From: a virus
Taxonomy: Duplodnaviria > Caudoviricetes
Length of the DNA: 56,221 nt
Strand: one strand, 5' to 3'
Virus record (IMG/VR): IMGVR_UViG_3300020045_002855
Span: 1-56,221 of that record
In this document: positions 5,470 to 49,570 of the stretch, piece after piece
Layout: the number at the start of each line of letters is the position of its first letter
Position numbering within the stretch: the first letter of the stretch is position 1
The notes under the pieces: generated by a model
What the model was told of the DNA's origin: nothing
The model's input: the letters and a program-made list of their open reading frames with translations, nothing else
Database searches by the model: none
Position numbers and translations under genes: made by a program

Positions 5470-8400
5470 TGCAGCAAAGCTGGTCCAACCAATACATAGG
5501 CATACCTTACGCAGCAGAAGGTAGAGGCAGGGACGGCCTAGATTGCTGGGGCCTTGTAAGACTTGTTCATGCGGAGCAGTTTGATAACCAGCTACCCAGT
5601 TTTAAAGGTGTGTATGAGCCTGGGTCTAGGCAGAGTGTAGCAGAAGCTATAGCTACGCATAAAGAAGGCTGGTCCCCAGTTACTGCAGAGAAGTCAGGAG
5701 ATGTTGCGCTATTCCGTATTCACGGAACAGAATCTCATGTTGGCGTGATTACCCGTCCAGGATTTTTCCTGCATGTAAGGGAAGGCCAGAGTGCTGTAGT
5801 TGAGCGATTAAACTCTAGTCTATGGAAAAGCCGTTTAGTGGGTTTATTCCGGTACACAGAAGGTTCAGAATCCCTGCACCTTCGGGCTAAACCGCACCCT
5901 CTAAAAACAGTGAGGATAGACGCAGAGGTATCTCCAGGGCAGTCACTCACACAGCTTGCAGGGCATATCAGAGACCAGTCTCAGGTTAGCAACGAAGTAA
6001 CTATATCTGGTGTAATGTTTGTAGATGGTCTACTAATACCTCAAGAGTTATGGGAAACCTGTGTCCCTGCTCCAGGCTCAAGAGTAGAGTACAGAGCCGT
6101 AGCTACAGGCAGCGGCATGGGCCGGATGTTTGCGATGCTTGCTATTATGGCCATTGCTATGGTAGCAGCACCTTACGCAGTAGCGGCATTGGGCATGACT
6201 ACTGTAAATGCTGCAGGCCTTACAGTAGCTGCAGCAGGTTTTACCGCAGGTCAGGTCGCCTTGGCAAGCGGTTTCATATCTATGGGTATTAACATCGTAG
6301 GTAATCTGCTACTTAACGCTATATTCCCTGTAAGGCAACCAAGTTTAGGCAGTCCAGCTACTGCAAGCACTCCTACTTACTCCCTTCAAGGCGGGAGTAA
6401 CACAGCTAATAAGTACGGGGCAATCCCTGTAATTCTAGGAAGATTTAGATATACCCCACCGCTAGGGGCCCAGGGTTATGTAGAGGGCTCTTCACGTACT
6501 AGCTATTTGCGTATGCTGTTGGTATGGGGTTACGGTCCACTGCAGATTAATGATATTCGCATAGGTGCCACAGCTCTGTCAAAATTTGACGAAGTAGAGA
6601 TAGCCACCATAATGGGTACAGGTTCGGAGGACATGCACGCCTTTAACAGTATCTACGGTAAAGACGTTGAACAAAATACAGTGGGTGTTAAGTTAATCTC
6701 TACAGATGACTACACCGAAAGGCAGTTTACTACGTCTACAGACCGAATTACAGTTGTGCTGAACTTCCCCCAAGGTTTGTGTACTATGAACACGACCAAC
6801 GGAAATACAGAGAATGCGACTGTAAGGGTTAATCTACAGGTCCGTAAAGCAGGTTCTGGTGATGCCTGGGCAGAGGTTAAAGAAACAGTAAGAGCTTACA
6901 AAGCCACACTTGCGCCTGCTTACTTTGACACAGATGAGACGACAGCAATTGAGAAAGTGTACTGCTGGACACGATTTAGTGTTGACAACACCGGAAACAT
7001 TATCAAGCGTGTAGGGAGCTTTACTGCAAACCCTGCAGCCAACCCCAGCGGTTATGTACTTGAGAAACTGAATGAGCAGTTTTTTATGGGGCCGTTTCAG
7101 ACGGAACCTACAGAAGACTTTGTACGGCTACCAGATTACGTGGAGGATGAGGAATCCCTGTGGGATGTTTGCATGTTTGGGGATGACGTATTTTCTTCTG
7201 TAGATCGACGGGGAGACAGAGGTTATGGGATTGTAACAGGATGTAACCTGACTGTCTCTGGTGCAGAAGTTACAATAGCCTCTGGCACGGTTATGCGTGC
7301 GATTACTCAGACTTTTGATTTGACTCGTGCTACGAAGATTGCGTTTTCTAAAACTGTAAGTTTTAGGGTACCTTACGATACCTACTCTGTGCGTTGTTAC
7401 AGGTTTAACCCTACACCTACAGGAGGGGGTCAGGTACTTGACGAGACCTACTTCCAAACCATGACAGCCTACGGGAGAGTGCGGCCTACAAACCCCCCAA
7501 AACCTTTAGCTATGAGTGCTATAAGGATTAAGGCGACTAATCAACTCAACGGTAGTGTTGAAGGCATTATAGCTACGTGTACGTCTATATGCCTTGACTA
7601 CAATCATTTGACAGATACCTGGGTCACTAGACCTACGAGAAACCCTGCAAGTCTGTTCAGGTATGTGTTGCAGCACCCAGGCAATGCCAAGCCTGTCGCA
7701 GACGCTAATATTAATATTGCTGCGTTGGAAGATTTTCATAATTTTTGTCGTACTAACCGGTTCAACTATGATGGTGTTCTGACTGGTCAAATGTCCTTGT
7801 TGGACTGCCTCAGAGACATTGCTGCTACGGGTAGGGCAAGTCCCACTCAAGTTGACGCAATGTGGACTGTTATTATTGACCGAGAGAGGTCGGAAATAGC
7901 CCAGCACTTTACACCACACAATTCGTGGGGGTTTGAAGGTTCGCGTTCGTTGCCTGTACTGCCAGATGCTTTCAGGGTAAACTTCAACAACGAAGCCAAG
8001 GGTTATCAACTCGATGAGTTGATTGTGTATAACGATGGGTTTACATCAGCTAATTCTCAGTTATATGAAACTTTAACACTTACAGGTGTAACTAATGCTA
8101 CTATAGCTCACAAGCAGGCTAGGTTCCATTACGCCCAGTTGAAGCTCCGCCCAGAGACCTATACGCTTAATGCAGACATAGAACACCTTGCCTGCACCAG
8201 AGGGGACCTGGTAAAAGTCGTTCATGATGTTCCTATGTGGGGTATAGGAAGTGGACGCATAAAAAACAGACTCAGCAGCACACTACTGGAACTTGATGAA
8301 CAGTTCCCTATGAAGGCTGGGACGCAATACACTATTCGTATTCGACTGGCTGACGGCTCTTCCATAACCCGCACTGTTGATAGTGTAGGTGCGGACGGGT

Positions 8401-11267
8401 ACTACACCGAGATAACCTTGACTAGCGGAGTGTCTACGCTACAAGGAGAACCTAACAACCTCGTTATGTTTGGCGAACTGGCCGCAGAGTCTGTTGATCT
8501 CATTGTTCAAAGTATTGAGCCCGGCGATAACATGACCGCTCGGTTAACCTTGGTGGACTATTCGCCTGAAATCTACGACATAGATGGTATAGCCATACCT
8601 GAATTTGATAGCCAGATTACCCAAGCAGACGTACTGAAACTGCCTATTATCCTAGCTAAACCCGTAGTTAACAGGGTTGCATCTGACGAAACTGTAATGG
8701 TTAGGGTAGCTCCGGGTAAATACATATACAACATACGTGTTAGTTATGTCAACCCTAAGAATAAACCAAAGGACGTAAACGGAGTGGAGGCCCAATGGGA
8801 GTTTACTTCGGACACTTCTACGGAATGGCAGCACTCAAATCTGACACCAGTAGAGCTAGGGGCTGTAACACTTGATAATGTGCAAGAAGGGTTTGCTTAC
8901 AGGTTCCGGCTGCGATATGTAGACCGTGTAGGCAGGACTGGTCCGTGGTCTGATGTAACTACCCACACGGTAGCAGGACGAGTTAACCCTCCAGGAACTG
9001 TAGCAGACCTTGCTGTAACCGTTTCAGGTGCTAGGTTGCTACTTAACTGGACAGCTAGCCCTGAACCAGATGTTACTCGCTATGAAGTCAGACTGGTAAA
9101 TTCCAGTTTTGGTGTTAATGACACCAATCGAGTGTATCTGGGCGGTTCAACATCCTGCTACTTTACGCCGCAGGCACTAGGTACTTACACCTTTTACGTA
9201 AGAGCTATTGATGATGTTAAGCATTACTCAAACTCTTCTGCATCCGTAGTGTACGTATATGCCGCTCCCATAGCTCCTGCTACTTTGTCCTCTACTTTCC
9301 AGGACACCAGTAACACTAATGCAACCGTAACACTTGATTGGGCTAATGTCGATACACCCTTTGGTGTGCAGGATTATATAGTAACCTATGACAGTGTCAC
9401 TAAGACGGTACTTGCTAGCGTAATAACATTGCCTGCCTCCTGGATTGGCAGTAAAACCTTTAACGTAAAGACACGGGATAAGCTGGGAAATCTTTCTGCT
9501 AACCGATCGCATGTGGTAGTCAAAGCCTTGCCAGCCACGCCTGCGGTACCTACCGTTAAAGCCCTAACAGGCTCTCTAACACTTGATTGGTCAGATACCC
9601 CTAGGACAAGTCTGCCTGTCTGGGGTTATGAACTTCGTAGGTTGGACACTGGTTGGGGTATGAGCGACTTTACTTACAAGGGTTCAGCCTCTGGTTGTGT
9701 AGTCGCAGGTTCGGACTTAACCCTTGGTAGCAATACGTTCTATCTTAAAGCAGTAGACACTGATGGCAACTATTCAGCGGTAGCGTCGGTACTGACTTAT
9801 AACTATGTAGCACCTCCCAATCCCTCAAATATTACATATCTATTTGCAGATACCTCACTAACAGCAGCCACTGTAACTTTAGAGTGGGACGATGTTTTTC
9901 CTGTTTTGGGGTTGAAGCAGTACCAGATTAGTTGGGCATCTAAGACAATAACTTCTAAGTCAAGCACTGTTACTGTGCCTGCTAACTGGATTGGTTCTAG
10001 GACTTTCACAATTAAAACCGTAGACCAATTAAACAATGTGTCTACAGGCCAGTCCTTGGCTATCACAAAACTTGTCCCTGGGGTTGTCACCAATCTGCGG
10101 GCGCAAGTTATTGATAACAATGTCCTGCTGTACTGGAATCTGCCTACTAAGACCTCTTTACCTGTCAGTCACGTTCGCGTGCGGAAAGGTACTACTTTTG
10201 CTGGGTCTTCTTTGGTAGGAGACAAGGCTGGTGGATTCACTGCTTTGTCTGAGTTGGCTGCTGGAACTAATACTTACTGGGTCTCTGCTGTAGATACTGA
10301 TAACTATGAGGGCACCGCTGTTTCTGTACCTGCCAATGTTAGCGAACCTCCAGACTTTGTATTTCACGGTTCTTACGCTTCTAGTTTCGGCGGTACGAAG
10401 AGCAACGCTCTAACAGACTCCACAACACTTGTCCTACCTGTAGACACTACCACAACATTCCAAGATCACTTCATTGGTAATAGCTGGTCTACCCCTAACG
10501 ACCAAATCGTGGCGGGTTTTCCCTACTATTCGCAACCTACTCCAGCCTCTAGCTACTACGAAGAGGTGTTTGATTTTGGTACAATCTTAGCATCTAGTAA
10601 AGTCTCTGTGTCTTACACAGCAGAAACTCTAGCAGGCTCTCCTGTATTTGTGGTTTCTATAGGTTTATCCGATGACAACGTTACTTACAGTACAACCACC
10701 GGAGTCACGGAATTGTTCGGTGCCGCATGGCGCTACGCTAAGGTTCGCGTAGCAGTTTCTCAGGCAGCCGATACACACGCCCTAGTGCGTATGGATCGGC
10801 TGGTGGTGCGGGCCGATGCAAAGTTGAAAAACGATGCTGGTGCAAAAGCCTGCCTGAGCACAGACACTAACGGAACAGTAGTAAATTTTGCCCTACCCTT
10901 TATTGATGTATCAAGTCTTACAGTAACTCCTGCTAGCACTACTGCTGTAACAGCAGTCTATAATTTCCAGGATACCGCGCTGTCTGGTACTTATTCTGTA
11001 GCAAGTAATGTAGCAACAGTGACGGTGACGGGTCATGACCTTGAGGTTGGGCAGAAAGTAAGGCTTGCTTTCACATCTGGCACAGCACCGAATGGTGTCT
11101 ACTCCGTAGCATCGGTAACCAGTTCCAGTGTGTTTACTGTAGCTTTGACGACTCCGAATACTAGCGGAAACATCAGCACCTACCCGCAAGGGTTTAGAAT
11201 CTACCTATTCAATTCCGCAGGTGCGCGAATTAGCGCAACTGCTTCATGGTCAGCAAAAGGATATTAA
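5469..11267 (+). CDS. Central tail/host-specificity protein (J-like) with fused N-terminal NlpC/P60 peptidase and tail-assembly domain; FN3 repeats
   Basis: N-terminus has GIPY..GLDCWGLV..SHVGV..FLHV (NlpC/P60); YGAIPVILG and TRNPA are J-type motifs; repeated W..YE(V/L)R..FYV(R/K)A(I/V)D FN3-like units. Confidence 0.88.
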   Translation: MQQSWSNQYIGIPYAAEGRGRDGLDCWGLVRLVHAEQFDNQLPSFKGVYEPGSRQSVAEAIATHKEGWSPVTAEKSGDVALFRIHGTESHVGVITRPGFFLHVREGQSAVVERLNSSLWKSRLVGLFRYTEGSESLHLRAKPHPLKTVRIDAEVSPGQSLTQLAGHIRDQSQVSNEVTISGVMFVDGLLIPQELWETCVPAPGSRVEYRAVATGSGMGRMFAMLAIMAIAMVAAPYAVAALGMTTVNAAGLTVAAAGFTAGQVALASGFISMGINIVGNLLLNAIFPVRQPSLGSPATASTPTYSLQGGSNTANKYGAIPVILGRFRYTPPLGAQGYVEGSSRTSYLRMLLVWGYGPLQINDIRIGATALSKFDEVEIATIMGTGSEDMHAFNSIYGKDVEQNTVGVKLISTDDYTERQFTTSTDRITVVLNFPQGLCTMNTTNGNTENATVRVNLQVRKAGSGDAWAEVKETVRAYKATLAPAYFDTDETTAIEKVYCWTRFSVDNTGNIIKRVGSFTANPAANPSGYVLEKLNEQFFMGPFQTEPTEDFVRLPDYVEDEESLWDVCMFGDDVFSSVDRRGDRGYGIVTGCNLTVSGAEVTIASGTVMRAITQTFDLTRATKIAFSKTVSFRVPYDTYSVRCYRFNPTPTGGGQVLDETYFQTMTAYGRVRPTNPPKPLAMSAIRIKATNQLNGSVEGIIATCTSICLDYNHLTDTWVTRPTRNPASLFRYVLQHPGNAKPVADANINIAALEDFHNFCRTNRFNYDGVLTGQMSLLDCLRDIAATGRASPTQVDAMWTVIIDRERSEIAQHFTPHNSWGFEGSRSLPVLPDAFRVNFNNEAKGYQLDELIVYNDGFTSANSQLYETLTLTGVTNATIAHKQARFHYAQLKLRPETYTLNADIEHLACTRGDLVKVVHDVPMWGIGSGRIKNRLSSTLLELDEQFPMKAGTQYTIRIRLADGSSITRTVDSVGADGYYTEITLTSGVSTLQGEPNNLVMFGELAAESVDLIVQSIEPGDNMTARLTLVDYSPEIYDIDGIAIPEFDSQITQADVLKLPIILAKPVVNRVASDETVMVRVAPGKYIYNIRVSYVNPKNKPKDVNGVEAQWEFTSDTSTEWQHSNLTPVELGAVTLDNVQEGFAYRFRLRYVDRVGRTGPWSDVTTHTVAGRVNPPGTVADLAVTVSGARLLLNWTASPEPDVTRYEVRLVNSSFGVNDTNRVYLGGSTSCYFTPQALGTYTFYVRAIDDVKHYSNSSASVVYVYAAPIAPATLSSTFQDTSNTNATVTLDWANVDTPFGVQDYIVTYDSVTKTVLASVITLPASWIGSKTFNVKTRDKLGNLSANRSHVVVKALPATPAVPTVKALTGSLTLDWSDTPRTSLPVWGYELRRLDTGWGMSDFTYKGSASGCVVAGSDLTLGSNTFYLKAVDTDGNYSAVASVLTYNYVAPPNPSNITYLFADTSLTAATVTLEWDDVFPVLGLKQYQISWASKTITSKSSTVTVPANWIGSRTFTIKTVDQLNNVSTGQSLAITKLVPGVVTNLRAQVIDNNVLLYWNLPTKTSLPVSHVRVRKGTTFAGSSLVGDKAGGFTALSELAAGTNTYWVSAVDTDNYEGTAVSVPANVSEPPDFVFHGSYASSFGGTKSNALTDSTTLVLPVDTTTTFQDHFIGNSWSTPNDQIVAGFPYYSQPTPASSYYEEVFDFGTILASSKVSVSYTAETLAGSPVFVVSIGLSDDNVTYSTTTGVTELFGAAWRYAKVRVAVSQAADTHALVRMDRLVVRADAKLKNDAGAKACLSTDTNGTVVNFALPFIDVSSLTVTPASTTAVTAVYNFQDTALSGTYSVASNVATVTVTGHDLEVGQKVRLAFTSGTAPNGVYSVASVTSSSVFTVALTTPNTSGNISTYPQGFRIYLFNSAGARISATASWSAKGY

Positions 11268-12457: not shown

Positions 12458-12853
12458 ATGGAACCTATTGAATCTTTCACTAGCGGGAAACTGCACGCAG
12501 TAACAGTGAACCTGAACGGCTCAAAGCTTGTAATCTATGACGGGGTAGAGGTTTCTCCCTCAGAAATAGAGCTAACGCCTTTAGAACAGCTAGAGGTGGA
12601 CAGTGCTGTGTATATACCTCCTGCTGTACCGCTGAAAATAACTATGGCACAGGCGAGACTTGCTCTGCTAACTGCAGGCCTTCTAGAACTTGTAGACGCC
12701 CAAGTCAGTTCTTTACCTGCTGTTGCCGCCATTAACTGGCAATATAGGCAAAACGTGGAGAGAGACTCCCCTTTGGTAGCCTCGCTAGCGGCAGCCCTAA
12801 ACCTTGATGCTGCTGCTGTAGACAACTTATTTATACTAGGAGCTTCGCTGTGA
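12458..12853 (+). CDS. Tail-fibre-associated protein (chaperone-like)
   Basis: ITMAQARLALL...W....V.RDSPLV..LA..L.L....VD.LF motif common next to fibre genes. Confidence 0.6.
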   Translation: MEPIESFTSGKLHAVTVNLNGSKLVIYDGVEVSPSEIELTPLEQLEVDSAVYIPPAVPLKITMAQARLALLTAGLLELVDAQVSSLPAVAAINWQYRQNVERDSPLVASLAAALNLDAAAVDNLFILGASL

Positions 12854-35524: not shown

Positions 35525-36927
35525 TTACGCAGGAATGGCAACAATAGCCAGCGGAGGAACCATTGCGCCGCCTGCTCCACCTGCTTTCGCAGTTGCCGAT
35601 CCAGCAATCACAGTCCACTGCTGAATCGTGCCAGTGACGGCTTGACCAGGAGTCAACCCTGACATCTCGGTGGTCATGCTTACCACGCCTTTTTGTCCTG
35701 AAATACCAACGGCTGCTGCGCGTGTAGTAGTGCTTTGCGTGCCAGCCATGCGCATAAAAAGCACATCATTTGCAGTCCACTCGTAATAGACCGAAACCTG
35801 AAAAATGACCTTGCCAGTTGGTCCAGCCACTGTCGTAATCTTGCCGTTTGTCGCGTCAATATTTGCCGCCGAAGTAGTTGTCGCGACGGATAGGGCGGTT
35901 GTGGGTGAGTAGATGGTATCAACGGGTGCTGGTGGGATTCCAGACCTAAGTGCTGCAGTTTTACGCGCAGCACTTAGTGGAGTTTCTGCTTCTGATTTGT
36001 ATGTTGCTGGTAAGCTGGCTACAAGCTCTCCTGACAGATTTGTGAACCCGGCAAACTTCGCGGTGCTAGCACCTGCCGAGCAAAAATGCTCACACATCAA
36101 AACACTTGATGGCACATCAGAAAGTTTAAAAACACTGATTGCCAGCACCCCGCACATAGCGGCAATTTCAGCATCCGTGATGGTCATTTGCGATCCATCA
36201 GGCAGCGTTGTGTAAGCAATGCCTGATGTGGCATCCAGTATGGAATCGCAAATCCATGGGTTACGCCGTCAGCAGCAGGGTTTGTAAAGTTTTGAGTCTT
36301 GACAACAAATAGATTGCCAATGCCATTACAGACAAACCATTTGGCTTGCCCGGTAGCCCCGGTTCCCGGAATGACCGACATATGCAACCAAGACTTGGGT
36401 ACGTTAGTTCCACCGCCCTCGTAAATACCATCCCATGCTGCATAAGTCGTATTTCCGTTACCGTCATCAGAACCGGCAGGCATGGTCCATGAACAAACAA
36501 CCCGGCCAACCGGACCTGACTGCTGTGATTGATAGTAGTCGGCCAATCCGCCTGAGCCAGCGCCAGCCTGATTATTTACGATCAACCGCCCTGAGTTGAT
36601 AATTGGGGTCCGGCCGGTCGCATTGAATGTGTAGTCAGCCACCTGCCCAGTGTCCAAAAAACTGGGCGGTGCACCATTTGTCTTTGTTGTGAAATCCACA
36701 TACGCAGACAAATTCCCATCCCCATCCACCAAGATTCCACCAGTACCGGTGCCTCGAAGCGTGAATGTTACACCCGTATCACTGTTTACGCAGTGAGAGC
36801 CTAACGCAGGAGCATAACCACCACTAGCAATAGCTGCGTTAATGGTGGCAATTTCTGCCGTTGTGTACGCACCAAGGTAGGGCGTATTCACACCTCGGAG
36901 TTGGCGCAAAAAGTCTAAGACAGCCAC
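35525..36927 (-). pseudogene. Fibre/receptor-binding-like gene split into two ORFs (36184-36927 and 35525-36187), probably by a -1 frameshift near 36258-36260
   Basis: Gly/Thr/Ala-rich beta-type sequence in both halves; the downstream frame is open from 36268 and reads PWICDSILDATSGIAYTTLPDGSQ into MTITDAE. Confidence 0.6.
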
Positions 36928-37659: not shown

Positions 37660-37886
37660 GACTTCTCCAGTTTGCGTTGTTTGTGGTCCATATTAAACCA
37701 CCAGGAATAACAAGCTTTGTTAGCTAACTCTTGATCTTCTTTCAGAATCTTCTTTAGATCTACAGAAGCCGTCCCTGCTTGGTAGCCCTTGGCGTAGACC
37801 TTGCCAAGTTCTTTGTGGTAGTTGGCAAATACATAAACAGCCGAGATGATCTGTACTACTACGTAGCACATGAGTAACTTACTCCG
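37656..37886 (-). CDS. Small membrane-anchored protein
   Basis: N-terminal hydrophobic helix LLMCYVVVQIISAVYVFA. Confidence 0.55.
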   Translation of the reverse strand, partial: RSKLLMCYVVVQIISAVYVFANYHKELGKVYAKGYQAGTASVDLKKILKEDQELANKACYSWWFNMDHKQRKLEKS

Positions 37887-38043
37887 CATAGCAAGACTCA
37901 CTCAGAAGTCTTTCAAATGCTTCTTTCCAGAGCAGGGCAGCACCTGACCAGACCGGGTAAGGGTTATGTACCTCTGCGCCCGATAGTGCTTCAATTGCAG
38001 CTTTTTCAGCCCTATTAATTACTACTGCTTGAGAGATAATCAT
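37879..38043 (-). CDS. Hypothetical protein
   Basis: MIISQAVV...NPYP..S.AA..W; AAGGAG RBS. Confidence 0.55.
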   Translation of the reverse strand: MIISQAVVINRAEKAAIEALSGAEVHNPYPVWSGAALLWKEAFERLLSESCYAE

Positions 38044-38213
38044 GCTAACTCCTTCATCAAAATCTGAGTCTGTTCTCTGCGCAAAGCAAGTTGGCATTCA
38101 TTGTGGTACTGGAACAGTCGGATGTAGTCCTCTGGACGACCTCCAAACTTTTTCGCACGTTCAGTTGCAGAGGGCACAAGGATAATGGGTTTGTTGCATC
38201 GTTTGCAATTCAT
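38040..38213 (-). CDS. 57-aa CxxC protein (not in the ORF track)
   Basis: MNCKRCNKPIILVPSATERAKKFGGRPEDYIRLFQYHNECQLALRREQTQILMKELA*; stop overlaps the next start. Confidence 0.6.
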   Translation of the reverse strand: MNCKRCNKPIILVPSATERAKKFGGRPEDYIRLFQYHNECQLALRREQTQILMKELA

Positions 38214-38232
38214 GGTTCTCTCTTTTTAAAGT

Positions 38233-38342
38233 TTCAACTAACCCCGCTAGCATGAAGCAGCTTGCTTTAGTGTTTGGGTAGTCTATGTGGTAAGTACAGA
38301 CGTTTGTACCTGCGGAGCTAAACCGCAAGTCGGGATGTTGAA
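38233..38342 (-). ncRNA. Candidate multi-branched structured RNA directly after a tRNA-like gene
   Basis: Closing stems TTCAAC/GTTGAA and CCCG/CGGG enclose hairpins TGCGG/CCGCA, GTACA/TGTAC and AAGCA/TGCTT. Confidence 0.4.
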
Positions 38343-38344
38343 GG

Positions 38345-38420
38345 TGGTTGCGTAGACTGGCCTTGAACCAGTGTCTTCCAGGGGATGTACCTGTTGCTCT
38401 ACCTACTGAGCTACTACGCG
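38345..38420 (-). tRNA. Initiator-like tRNA (CAT) with a non-canonical anticodon loop
   Basis: 76-nt cloverleaf, CGCGTAG/CTACGCA acceptor with C1:A72 mismatch, encoded ACCA; loop TACATCC lacks U33 and purine 37. Confidence 0.75.
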
Positions 38421-38427
38421 GAATCTG

Positions 38428-38507
38428 TGGCCCCTTCTGCAGGAATCGAACCTGCGACGCACACTAGCTGCGCAACTAATGCCGCTCTGCCACTGAGCTA
38501 AGTCGGG
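38428..38507 (-). tRNA. tRNA-like gene with an extended anticodon hairpin and no readable anticodon
   Basis: Canonical D arm (GCTC-AGTGGCA-GAGC), T arm (GCAGG-TTCGATT-CCTGC) and CCA; 22-nt anticodon arm; two acceptor-stem mismatches. Confidence 0.65.
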
Positions 38508-38524
38508 AAACAAAATATTGCATT

Positions 38525-38705
38525 CTGTCACTTTAGCAATCTTTCTAGATCTGCGCACAAGAGGGTGATGCCCTGGCAAATAGTCATGACTGCTAAAGTG
38601 ACAGCCCTTGTTTAAGGGACTGTCTACAGCTAGGCGGGAGGATTATGGCTAAACCTATCTAGCTGTACCTAAGCCCTGCTTAGGACTGCGGTGCCATTAC
38701 ACCGC
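38525..38705 (-). ncRNA. Candidate structured RNA / leader of the tRNA-like cluster
   Basis: Five adjoining stems, including a 14-bp perfect inverted repeat (38525-38538/38591-38604) and a 9-bp one (TACAGCTAG/CTAGCTGTA); no credible ORF. Confidence 0.5.
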
Positions 38706-38714
38706 TCTGGGTTC

Positions 38715-39080
38715 TTACTCCGCCGAAGCAATCTCAGCGGCAGGAGCAATCTCAGCGGCAGGAGCAGTCTCAGCTTCTGGAGCAATCTCAGCGGCAGGAG
38801 CCACCACAGCGTCTGCCAGCTTCCACACACCAACTGCCACGATGGTGCCATTCTCACCGGGCACAGGGCGGACGGTGAACTTGCTCTTGTCACCGGTGCG
38901 TTTCTTGTAGGCCGACAGGGCGCTGGTCAAGCGTGCTTGGACCTTAGCGGCATCCACCACTTCGGTTTCCAGCACGGCTTCATCGGAACCTGCAACCAGG
39001 GCCGAGAAGTCATACTTGGAGCCCTTGGTGGACATGCGGACCAGGGCTGGCATTTTGGCGACTTGAGTAACGATAGACAT
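38715..39080 (-). CDS. Small putative DNA-binding protein with an APAAEI-repeat tail
   Basis: SKYDF...FTVR...VGVWK core seen in small phage proteins; 18-bp tandem repeats at the 3' end; AAGGA RBS. Confidence 0.65.
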   Translation of the reverse strand: MSIVTQVAKMPALVRMSTKGSKYDFSALVAGSDEAVLETEVVDAAKVQARLTSALSAYKKRTGDKSKFTVRPVPGENGTIVAVGVWKLADAVVAPAAEIAPEAETAPAAEIAPAAEIASAE

Positions 39081-39192
39081 TTGGGAAATCCTTTTGGTTG
39101 GTTGAAGTACGTAGTATAACGAAAAACTAGAGTCAGGGAAAATTTTTCAAACTATTTCTGGGGGGAGACCTGTTGCGTATTTTCCACATACG

Positions 39193-39534
39193 TCAGACGG
39201 TCTGGTCAGGGGCCTTTGCAGGCTTCTTTGCTTGGAGCTTGGTCACGGGCTCTGTAATCTTACTGGCACGCTGAAAGCCTTGCTTGGCCTCCCGGAGAAG
39301 GGTTGGCTCTTCCACCGCCACCTTCAATTCAAACTCGCCGACAAGTCCAGATGCCGCAGCGAAAGCCTGTTTTTGTATGTCAAGTCTTTTGATCTTAGCT
39401 TCCAGCATCGTAACTTGAGCCTGCCAAGATTCAAGTGTCCCATAAGCCTGCAGTAGGGCTACTTGGCAGCGTTCCAGCTCTTTGCCTACCAAAACTTCCA
39501 CGCTAGGGTTGAACAGGTTCTTGATGAATTTCAT
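39193..39534 (-). CDS. Hypothetical coiled-coil protein
   Basis: 113-aa ORF in the operon. Confidence 0.55.
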   Translation of the reverse strand: MKFIKNLFNPSVEVLVGKELERCQVALLQAYGTLESWQAQVTMLEAKIKRLDIQKQAFAAASGLVGEFELKVAVEEPTLLREAKQGFQRASKITEPVTKLQAKKPAKAPDQTV

Positions 39535-43056: not shown

Positions 43057-43107
43057 GAATCTCTCCTTTAAAGTTGAGCATTGCTGCTCGGTGGGTGTAA
43101 TCTGGAA

Positions 43108-43182
43108 TGGTCTCAGCAACAGGAATCGAACCTGTATCTAGCGCTTAGGAGGCACTTGTTCGTTCCATTGAACTATGCTGAG
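43108..43182 (-). tRNA. tRNA-Arg (CCT)
   Basis: CTCAGCA/TGCTGAG acceptor, loop CTCCTAA, T loop TTCGATT, encoded CCA. Confidence 0.93.
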
Positions 43183-43186
43183 AGTT

Positions 43187-43261
43187 TGGTCTGCCCTGCC
43201 GGAATCGAACCAGCATTGTGGAGGTAGAAGCTCCGTCTATTATCCGTTATAGGAAGGGCAG
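43187..43261 (-). tRNA. tRNA-Arg (TCT)
   Basis: CTGCCCT/AGGGCAG acceptor, loop CTTCTAC, T loop TTCGATT, encoded CCA. Confidence 0.92.
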
Positions 43262-43265
43262 TAGT

Positions 43266-43341
43266 TGGCGCGCCGGACAGGATTTGAACCTGCGACCGAT
43301 GGCTTATGAGGCCACAACTCTAACCGCTGAGTTACCGGCGC
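43266..43341 (-). tRNA. tRNA with CAT anticodon (elongator Met or Ile2)
   Basis: GCGCCGG/CCGGCGC acceptor, loop CTCATAA, T loop TTCAAAT, encoded CCA. Confidence 0.92.
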
Positions 43342-44125: not shown

Positions 44126-44704
44126 TTACTTGCTCTTCTTGGCGACGGTCTTCTTGGCGACAGGTTTTGCAACCGGCTTCACAGCTTTAGCTGCAGGCTT
44201 CACCACTTTGACCGTAGGTTTGACTTTGGTCACCGACTTTGCAGGGGCTTTGGCAACCGTTTTAGCCGTAGCAACCGCCTTCACAGGGGCTTTGACTACT
44301 TTCGCCGCAGGTTTGGCCGTTTTTGCGGCGGTTTTGGTTGGCGCTTTGGCCTTCGGTGCTGCAGTTTTCGCTGGAGCCTTGGCCTTCGGTGCCACTGGTG
44401 CCACTGGTGCCACCGCCGGTGCCACAACCGACACAGCCACTGGCGCAGCCATGCCATCATCAAGTGCTTCGCCGGTCAGTTTGTCGGAGATGACGCGGTA
44501 GTGCTCACGACTTGGATCTTCGATGAAGAACTTGATCTTACGGCTGTGGGGAATGCCGTGGGCGCGGCGCACTTCTGCGTAGATACGCTTTTTGGTAGCC
44601 TTGCCGGTCCGGCTGTAGACACGCTTGCCTTGGTTGTCAAAGGTGCTATTTACACGGTTGGCCAGCAGTTCACGAGCTTGTTTCTCGGTTATGTACATCT
44701 TCAT
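44126..44704 (-). CDS. Histone H1-like protein (basic N-domain plus Pro/Ala/Lys/Val repeat tail)
   Basis: About 100-aa tail of PAK/KPAAK/KTVAK repeats. Confidence 0.75.
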   Translation of the reverse strand: MKMYITEKQARELLANRVNSTFDNQGKRVYSRTGKATKKRIYAEVRRAHGIPHSRKIKFFIEDPSREHYRVISDKLTGEALDDGMAAPVAVSVVAPAVAPVAPVAPKAKAPAKTAAPKAKAPTKTAAKTAKPAAKVVKAPVKAVATAKTVAKAPAKSVTKVKPTVKVVKPAAKAVKPVAKPVAKKTVAKKSK

Positions 44705-49229: not shown

Positions 49230-49570
49230 TTGATTTCCTTTAACGTGGCGCTCTCTGAGTAGTAACCGTTAGATTCTCCAAACCAGCGAATATCTACCCA
49301 ACCTTTTACAGTAGCAAGTTTGTAGAAAGTCCATGTCTGAGAGGGGTCTTTTCCTCTCTCGGACTTTTTAAGCGACTCTTCCGCAACAAGGATTGGAGAG
49401 CCTACTAAGTCTTCTAGGTCACCTGTAATAGACTCTATATAGACCGTTTCGCAGCAATCCTGTGCATGGTACTGCTTGTAAGTCTTACCTTCTATGTCCG
49501 TAAAGAAGATTGCTGAACCTTCTTGTATGACGGATTTAAAGGTCTTGCCCTTTAAGTCTCCAAATTTCAT
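49226..49570 (-). CDS. Conserved phage protein
   Basis: YH.QDCCE.VYIE.I.GDL.DLVG.PIL.AEE...TWTFYKLAT.KG.V.IRW.GESNGYYSE. Confidence 0.75.
   Translation of the reverse strand: MKFGDLKGKTFKSVIQEGSAIFFTDIEGKTYKQYHAQDCCETVYIESITGDLEDLVGSPILVAEESLKKSERGKDPSQTWTFYKLATVKGWVDIRWFGESNGYYSESATLKEIK

Follow-up and report, generated by a model that had tools for sequence, protein, structure and literature searches.

The locus described here lies in the genome of an uncultured freshwater tailed phage, whose IMG/VR virus record (IMGVR_UViG_3300020045_002855; 56,221 bases, with an estimated completeness of 73%) was analysed over its whole length and is called the window below. Pfam and PHROGs identify genes for a tape-measure protein, a family-A DNA polymerase, a primase, a helicase, a ligase, ThyX and an SbcCD-like nuclease. 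The closest match to its DNA polymerase is only 28% identical, which leaves the phage without a close cultured relative. ARAGORN locates five tRNA-type genes on the minus strand. Three ordinary tRNAs lie at 43108-43341, at some distance from the locus as the first-pass annotation of this DNA had described. An initiator-type tRNA-Met(CAU) gene with the loop UACAUCC occupies 38345-38420 (-), and 7 nt upstream of it, a spacing that agrees with that annotation, is an 80-nt gene including an encoded CCA (38428-38507, -) that ARAGORN can label only as 'tRNA-???'. The latter gene, which sits inside a leftward operon, is the subject of this report.

A sixth ARAGORN call is a 92-nt 'tRNA-Cys' at 44326-44417 (+), to which Rfam assigns no tRNA match. 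It falls in a low-complexity stretch opposite a minus-strand open reading frame and is probably false. Among the 41 distinct open reading frames scanned with Pfam and/or PHROGs, none belongs to a family with a known tRNA-directed function. A permissive Rfam scan around the locus returned only tRNA and sub-threshold noise.

Most of the 80-nt RNA is built like a tRNA. The Rfam tRNA model RF00005 matches 38431-38507 (-) with 35.7 bits (E 7.6e-4 for a search of the whole window), above its gathering score of 29. Nucleotides 1-7 (38501-38507) form the 5′ strand of the acceptor stem and 38432-38438 its 3′ strand, followed by a discriminator G (38431) and the encoded CCA (38428-38430). The D arm (38484-38498) has a 4-bp stem and a 7-nt loop with GG, and the T arm (38439-38455) has a 5-bp stem and the loop UUCGAUU. 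U8, A14, G18 and G19 are all present, as are a 2-nt connector, a 5-nt variable loop and a 7-position acceptor stem. Sequence reading, ARAGORN and cmscan thus bear out the original description of a canonical D arm, T arm and CCA combined with an anticodon arm of 22 nt.

The extended anticodon arm (38461-38482, -) forms 7 bp (G.U, C-G, A-U, U.G, U-A, A-U and G-C) around an 8-nt loop, UUGCGCAG (38468-38475), whose UGCGCA core is self-complementary. In the RNAfold structure two further pairs (U.G and U-A) close, so that 9 bp enclose a loop of GCGC. The first-pass annotation had proposed 9-10 bp with a loop of 2-4 nt; the 9-bp form stands as the maximum, whereas a tenth pair would leave a loop of 2 nt, which is not realistic sterically. 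At position 35 ARAGORN assigns a 4-base anticodon, gcgc, and cmscan flags a 16-base insert in the anticodon region. On a 5-bp stem, however, no 7-nt loop with U33 is possible, in line with the earlier description of an arm that leaves no anticodon. The two neighbouring acceptor mismatches claimed for this gene are also real: positions 4:69 and 5:68 are G.A and A.A (5′ sides at 38504 and 38503), adjacent purine-purine oppositions that cmscan reports as two non-standard pairs. In the window copy the cloverleaf is computed at -25.5 kcal/mol, 3.8 above the minimum-energy fold of -29.3 (z = -1.03).

Compared with RF00005 tRNAs, the RNA shares the acceptor, D and T arms, the elbow nucleotides, the 5-nt variable loop and the encoded CCA. 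It differs in having an anticodon arm of 22 nt rather than 17 nt, in lacking a 7-nt loop (U33, triplet, R37) on a 5-bp stem, and in carrying the tandem purine-purine mismatch at 4:69 and 5:68. The gene is classed here among tRNA mimics: it passes the RF00005 threshold, and fails on anticodon-loop geometry and on a paired acceptor stem. Because it passes a curated Rfam threshold and because the same arm recurs in an independent phage genome, the mimic is more than a chance match.

That second genome is the sole related IMG/VR record that carries the mimic, a 73.9-kb contig designated L006 (identical with L011, L015 and G001) that CheckV rates as 100% complete. Its copy, at 12647-12726, is identical to the window copy at 74 of 80 bases (0.925) and scores 35.4 bits with RF00005. 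For this copy, energy minimisation yields the cloverleaf itself, with the 9-bp arm (-27.3 kcal/mol). The true tRNAs that the two phages share are less alike (66-87%), with 50 of 76 bases identical for tRNA-Met and 54 and 65 of 75 for two tRNA-Arg genes. Among their proteins, a peptidase shares 71% of 380 aligned residues and a 696-aa protein has 45% identity, and the nucleotide identity of aligned coding pieces ranges from 64 to 77%. Fourfold-degenerate sites in the peptidase and 696-aa genes are saturated, with identities of 0.29 (129 sites) and 0.33 (142 sites), and those of the adjacent orf121 are 0.63 identical (49 sites).

The six differences between the two mimics are distributed in a manner that leaves the structure intact. 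Two fall in the D loop, both outside A14, G18 and G19, and the D stem is invariant. One falls in the arm, where U.G becomes C-G; the other 21 of its 22 bases, including all eight of the loop, are identical. Two form a single compensatory change in the T stem (C-G to U-A), and the last is at an acceptor mismatch, where position 68 (38436) is A in the window and G in L006. A.A is thereby replaced by A.G, still purine-purine, and L006 has a tandem G.A/A.G; a fully paired 7-bp acceptor stem is absent from both copies. In total, 23 of the 25 drawn pairs are kept in both copies, the two mismatches are unpaired in both, and none of the six changes breaks a pair. In contrast to the mimic arm, the anticodon stems of the true tRNAs in both phages drift with compensation. 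The RNA thus departs from every working tRNA design in two respects, both of which are kept in L006: an arm that is two base pairs and one loop base too long and whose sequence is conserved, and the tandem purine-purine mismatch at 4:69 and 5:68.

If neutral positions differ at a rate of 0.37, the probability of six or fewer differences in 80 nt is 1.3e-9, and that of at most one in the 22-nt arm is 5e-4. At a neutral rate of 0.21 the corresponding values are 1e-3 and 0.04. With two full mimic sequences available, covariation amounts to one compensatory pair, and a shuffle control on the two-row alignment (252 of 500) is uninformative at that depth. The whole intergenic block is 87% identical between the two phages, and part of the likeness of the mimics may result from recent recombination. 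Retention of the extended stem by a homologue had been named at the outset as the check on a simple pseudogene. Because the related phage keeps the 22-nt arm with that single change, this alternative fails. Judged by its pattern of sequence conservation, the gene is probably not a simple pseudogene and probably encodes a selected, non-decoding tRNA-shaped RNA.

Searches for additional relatives were made with several parts of the locus. A blastn comparison of the locus and 20 kb around it with INPHARED phages gave no match, and the exact arm has no occurrence elsewhere in IMG/VR. A looser pattern of arm plus T loop found eight stretches in IMG/VR, of which only the L006 contig (as L011) contains a tRNA at the match. 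The same contig was the only one retrieved from IMG/VR with an acceptor/D pattern that leaves arm length free, and the only one found with an upstream spacer pattern. In metagenomes, the arm plus T-loop pattern has no match, and the acceptor/D pattern finds five unrelated stretches, with an ARAGORN tRNA in none; one of these is an intron-bearing tRNA of another kind, and two others read as apparent coding sequence. Among GTDB species genomes the arm plus T-loop pattern finds 26 stretches, and no ARAGORN tRNA coincides with any of the 26 matches. In two of these loci, L020 and L022, ARAGORN places a tRNA elsewhere, in L022 a true tRNA 77 nt from a match that itself has no tRNA shape. The 696-aa neighbour protein has eight distant relatives, and alignment leads to five IMG/VR loci, one of which (L015) is the L006 contig; the other four lack the mimic. 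Together, the pattern scans of IMG/VR, JGI metagenomes and GTDB species genomes place the mimic in exactly one other record.

Sequencing runs provide a further view of variation at the locus. Logan contigs from four runs (X1, X2, X3 and X5), each from a different study, cover 38428-38518 or more. Small word shares give three of these runs a freshwater or freshwater-sediment label, and the fourth has none. None of the listed runs that contain the locus is an RNA run. The X5 piece has three differences from the window, and X1 has four over 38406-38542. Among the differences listed for X1 is 38438 T>G, a change that would disrupt U7-A pairing in the absence of a matching change at nucleotide 7. 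In X2 and X5 the stretch 38335-38427, which holds the tRNA-Met cassette, is replaced at a joint by 94 unlike letters, and X1 diverges within the tRNA-Met gene. The loop of this neighbour is UACAUCC in the window, UUCAUAA in L006 and CCCAUAA in X1 (read from a loose end). The run contigs and the L006 comparison therefore indicate that the adjacent tRNA is exchanged among at least three lineages, all of which retain the mimic with its upstream hairpins. On the strength of these alignments, the tRNA-Met(CAU) gene is a swappable cassette outside the conserved unit. The first-pass annotation had interpreted the two adjoining genes as a cassette of decoys, each altered in its decoding arm. This idea is not sustained, given that the L006 neighbour is an ordinary initiator-type tRNA and that the sequencing runs replace the neighbour with unlike sequence while the mimic stays.

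The other side of the mimic is part of the conserved unit. Conserved hairpins and an AU-rich spacer at 38508-38626 (-), identified by alignment and consensus folding, are covered in all four runs, and X1 keeps 38518-38626 while 38627-38808 is replaced. Over the approximately 200 nt upstream of the mimic (38508-38712, -) there are five conserved hairpins, with a consensus fold of 61 pairs, three of which are compensatory between the window and L006. Mimic and hairpins together make up one block in the window, L006, X1, X2, X3 and X5. Next in order is orf121 (38715-39080, -), whose silent-site identity of 0.63 is twice that of nearby genes (~0.3). Its C-terminus carries PAAEIA-type repeats that differ between the window phage and L006, and it has no match in Pfam, PHROGs or INPHARED. 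A consensus scan of 37800-39300 found no intrinsic terminator and no sigma-70-like promoter on the minus strand; its single promoter-like match is on the plus strand.

What might such an RNA do? Our preferred explanation, held tentatively and at somewhat less than an even chance, is that it is a selected non-decoding tRNA mimic that would be processed like a tRNA and act by binding a tRNA-recognising factor. The mimic would be transcribed together with its neighbours in the leftward operon and excised like a tRNA, as suggested by the U that precedes nucleotide 1, the intact elbow nucleotides and the encoded CCA. It would then fold into a normal L-shaped body that reads no codons. This stable, tRNA-shaped RNA could occupy a protein that recognises tRNAs, with a host nuclease directed at tRNA, or another tRNA-binding factor, as the most plausible partner, and the conserved arm would make a specific contact with the bound protein. 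The best-kept features of the mimic are those read by RNase P, by the 3′ processing and CCA enzymes, and by other proteins that bind the tRNA body. Because the arm is kept at the sequence level while true tRNA stems drift with compensation, a sequence-specific contact is favoured over a mere spacer. That the target is specifically a host tRNA-directed nuclease or similar, with the mimic as its decoy, is on its own a guess that we consider unlikely to be right in this exact form, and it fits a neighbourhood in which the adjacent initiator-type tRNA has a loop that changes between lineages.

We also considered an elaboration in which two mimics pair to form a particle with two tRNA heads. Such a dimer could bridge or capture a tRNA-binding enzyme that is itself oligomeric, for example a defence nuclease. 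The loops of two molecules might kiss, or their arms might merge into a 22-bp duplex. A UGCGCA loop-loop duplex has 6 bp and a computed energy of -10.3 kcal/mol, and the homodimer is computed at -70.9 compared with 2 x -29.3 kcal/mol for the monomers, favouring it by ~12 kcal/mol. Dimer formation would explain why the arm is frozen in sequence as well as in pairing, unlike the drifting stems of the true tRNAs. The prior chance of a palindromic four-base centre is 1 in 16. This model-based proposal is a lead rather than a finding, and we regard it as a long shot.

The 8-nt loop raises the possibility that the gene is instead an unusual decoding tRNA, which reads a GCGC codon with a +1 shift or reads a triplet in the manner of yeast mitochondrial tRNA-Thr. 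ARAGORN's 4-base anticodon agrees with this proposal, and so does the order of the loop, with a U, a U33-like U, GCGC, A and G (U before and A after the four bases). The loop UUGCGCAG has the 8 nt of a quadruplet or +1-suppressor loop, although it sits on a 7-bp stem and can alternatively close to 4 nt. Loops of this size are known from frameshift suppressors and from one natural mitochondrial tRNA, the latter described in PMC7609411. In the same paper, the longest known natural anticodon stems have 6 bp, accompanied by a connector and a variable loop that are both shortened. The 7-bp stem of the mimic has a normal connector and variable loop, and decoding is therefore unlikely. The tandem mismatch in the acceptor stem also weighs against it. 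Moreover, when compared with synthetase identity rules, the RNA (C1-G72 with G73, C20 in the window and G20 in L006, no A20 and no G3.U70) presents no recognisable synthetase identity set. A blastn search places it nearest to phage tRNAs of several different isotypes, with E values of 4e-3 or worse.

A decoding function would be expected to leave a trace among the genes, and we scanned both strands for GCGC sites at which a started frame passes by a +1 shift into a frame of at least 80 codons without an upstream start. In the window, 3 of 276 GCGC sites pass this filter, and 184 of the 256 quadruplets give as many or more; in the complete genome G001, 8 of 526 sites pass and 90 of 256 quadruplets are as good. 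Start-less frames gated by GCGC are thus not above background in either, and neither the window (73% complete) nor complete G001 contains a convincing gene that requires the shift. The best candidate, which is also the only one on the minus strand, lies at 49251. Its GCG does not match the frame of the real gene in which it occurs, and the gene downstream has an ATG and a ribosome-binding site of its own. A +1 shift is not needed to explain a seemingly divided ligase, because an ATG that overlaps the preceding stop codon serves as the start of the ligase. A fibre-like pair (36184-36927 and 35525-36187) would, by frame arithmetic, need a -1 shift, for which a tRNA with an 8-nt loop gives no explanation. 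In the window, the complement of the loop occurs elsewhere four times (2.4 expected; 29 of 100 shuffles have as many), and TGCGCA occurs 22 times (14.8 expected; 2 of 100 shuffles have as many); we base no conclusion on either count. Taking both sides together, we judge decoding to be quite unlikely. Two further readings of the locus were rejected: the arm is a perfect hairpin without the bulges of a bulge-helix-bulge or small intron, and the gene is not an attP remnant, given its full cloverleaf and the lack of an integrase among the 41 open reading frames scanned.

Somewhat better placed, though still improbable in our estimation, is a role as a processing or stability element, in which the tRNA shape recruits RNase P and 3′ enzymes and the released mimic is a by-product. 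By cutting the long operon transcript, these enzymes would give the upstream hairpin RNA (38508-38626) its 3′ end and the tRNA-Met cassette its 5′ side. Such a role is in keeping with the single block formed by the mimic and upstream hairpins in all relatives seen, with the lack of a nearby minus-strand promoter or terminator, which fits co-transcription with the neighbours, and with the elbow, acceptor end and CCA being the best-kept parts. Yet the true tRNA only 7 nt away would give the same cuts, making the mimic redundant. Nor does a processing signal need any particular arm, and the mimic's arm is nearly invariant where true anticodon stems drift. The least probable of the alternatives, and one that we rate as very unlikely, is that the gene is a decaying tRNA pseudogene, or a passenger that is alike in the two genomes only through recent recombination of co-circulating phages. 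The acceptor mismatches and odd arm could indeed result from decay, the boundaries of the tRNA-Met cassette show that recombination occurs at the locus, and likeness between the two phages is higher across the whole block, and at the silent sites of orf121, than elsewhere in their genomes. However, mimic identity exceeds even those silent sites (0.925 versus 0.63), no substitution breaks a pair, and one pair co-varies. Conversion of a 17-nt arm to a paired 7-bp stem with an 8-nt loop would also require at least two coordinated changes (two base pairs and one loop base) and cannot arise from any single indel, and simple arithmetic gives seven consecutive pairs a chance probability of ~0.001.

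Returning to the preferred explanation of a tRNA mimic that binds a tRNA-recognising factor, precedents exist for non-decoding RNAs of this general type. Gammaherpesvirus vtRNAs and mascRNA are non-decoding tRNA mimics whose body is recognised by tRNA enzymes. The same is true of bacterial YrlA (RF02553) and of the tRNA-like domain of tmRNA, from which the phage RNA differs in lacking a Ro-binding stem and tmRNA features, and in ending at the acceptor stem like a real tRNA. The YrlA threshold is not reached, the best value being 24.7 bits compared with 69, for a stretch spanning the junction of the mimic and tRNA-Met genes.

Known tRNAs with altered anticodon arms resemble the mimic in part. 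The +1 frameshift-suppressor or quadruplet tRNAs sufD, SufB2 and sufJ have 8-nt loops on 5-bp stems and a known codon target, and yeast mitochondrial tRNA-Thr(UAG) provides a natural 8-nt anticodon loop (PMC7609411). These RNAs share with the mimic the 8-nt loop, with a pyrimidine and U before the four central bases and a purine after them; they differ in having a 5-bp stem and a known codon, whereas the mimic has a 7-bp stem and no GCGC-dependent gene was found for it. PMC7609411 also lists tRNA-Pyl, tRNA-Sec, allo-tRNA and mt-tRNA-Ser(UCN) as having 6-bp anticodon stems with a 7-nt loop, compensated by a 1-nt connector, a 3-nt variable loop or an 8/9-bp acceptor stem. The mimic likewise has an elongated anticodon stem in an RNA that can form the L shape, but adds two pairs and a loop base without any of the compensation described there.

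A second group of comparators consists of phage tRNAs linked to the evasion of nucleases. In the cited portion of one study, substitutions in phage tRNA anticodon loops are proposed to permit escape from VapC, PrrC and colicin D/E5 (eLife 2023, PMC10264068), and a T5 tRNA is described as neutralising PARIS in the cited part of another (PMC11464382). As presented in these portions, they are, like the mimic, phage-encoded tRNA shapes altered in the arm that host tRNases attack, and the mimic adjoins an initiator-type tRNA with a lineage-specific loop. The tRNAs in those portions, however, decode with a loop of normal size, whereas the mimic has no usable anticodon geometry and could therefore be at most a decoy, not a replacement tRNA. 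One survey refers broadly to phage tRNA-like structures that are left unclassified (PMC10690425). Our literature search found no phage-encoded, anticodon-less tRNA mimic with a function, though the supplementary tables of PMC10264068 and PMC10690425 may list similar genes.

Current explanations of phage tRNA genes invoke codon supply or the replacement of host tRNAs by nuclease-resistant versions, and the mimic, which retains what tRNA enzymes recognise but lacks a usable anticodon, fits neither. Phages may thus put the tRNA shape to a third use, such as a decoy, sponge or processing handle. Because the mimic adjoins an initiator-tRNA cassette that is exchanged between lineages, the locus may be a hotspot of conflict over host defences directed at tRNA. 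Standard annotation may also overlook a wider class of such genes, as phage sequences encountered in this work contain several other tRNA-shaped genes with abnormal anticodon arms.

One of these is in L006 itself, where a 98-nt tRNA-shaped RNA follows tRNA-Arg(CCU) at 7839-7936 (+). It matches RF00005 with 32.1 bits (fold z = -3.1), and has a 7-bp acceptor stem, a T arm, ACCA and an abnormal interior. The window retains only a 3′ remnant of it, at ~43085-43105 (-). A distant relative, the GC-rich phage contig L017, has three tRNA-Glu-like genes on its plus strand (9009-9084, ~9362-9440 and 9447-9524) whose anticodon loops can be taken as either 6 or 8 nt long and are able to close further, to 4 nt; two are 'tRNA-???' to ARAGORN. 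In L004 (2426-2493 and 2634-2709, both on the minus strand) a tRNA-shaped gene matches the mimic in its D arm, variable loop and T arm, but its anticodon arm is shortened to 13 nt; it lies ~140 nt from a RAGATH-21 RNA (91.5 bits). A phage tRNA-shaped gene in L005 (1503-1583, +; 53.4 bits) combines a 5-bp anticodon stem with a 16-nt loop. Finally, a cultured phage, Rhodococcus phage Hiro (NC_048669.1), encodes a tRNA with a 6-nt anticodon loop (L060:1494-1568, +), which sister records annotate variously as tRNA-Val, tRNA-Arg or tRNA-OTHER.
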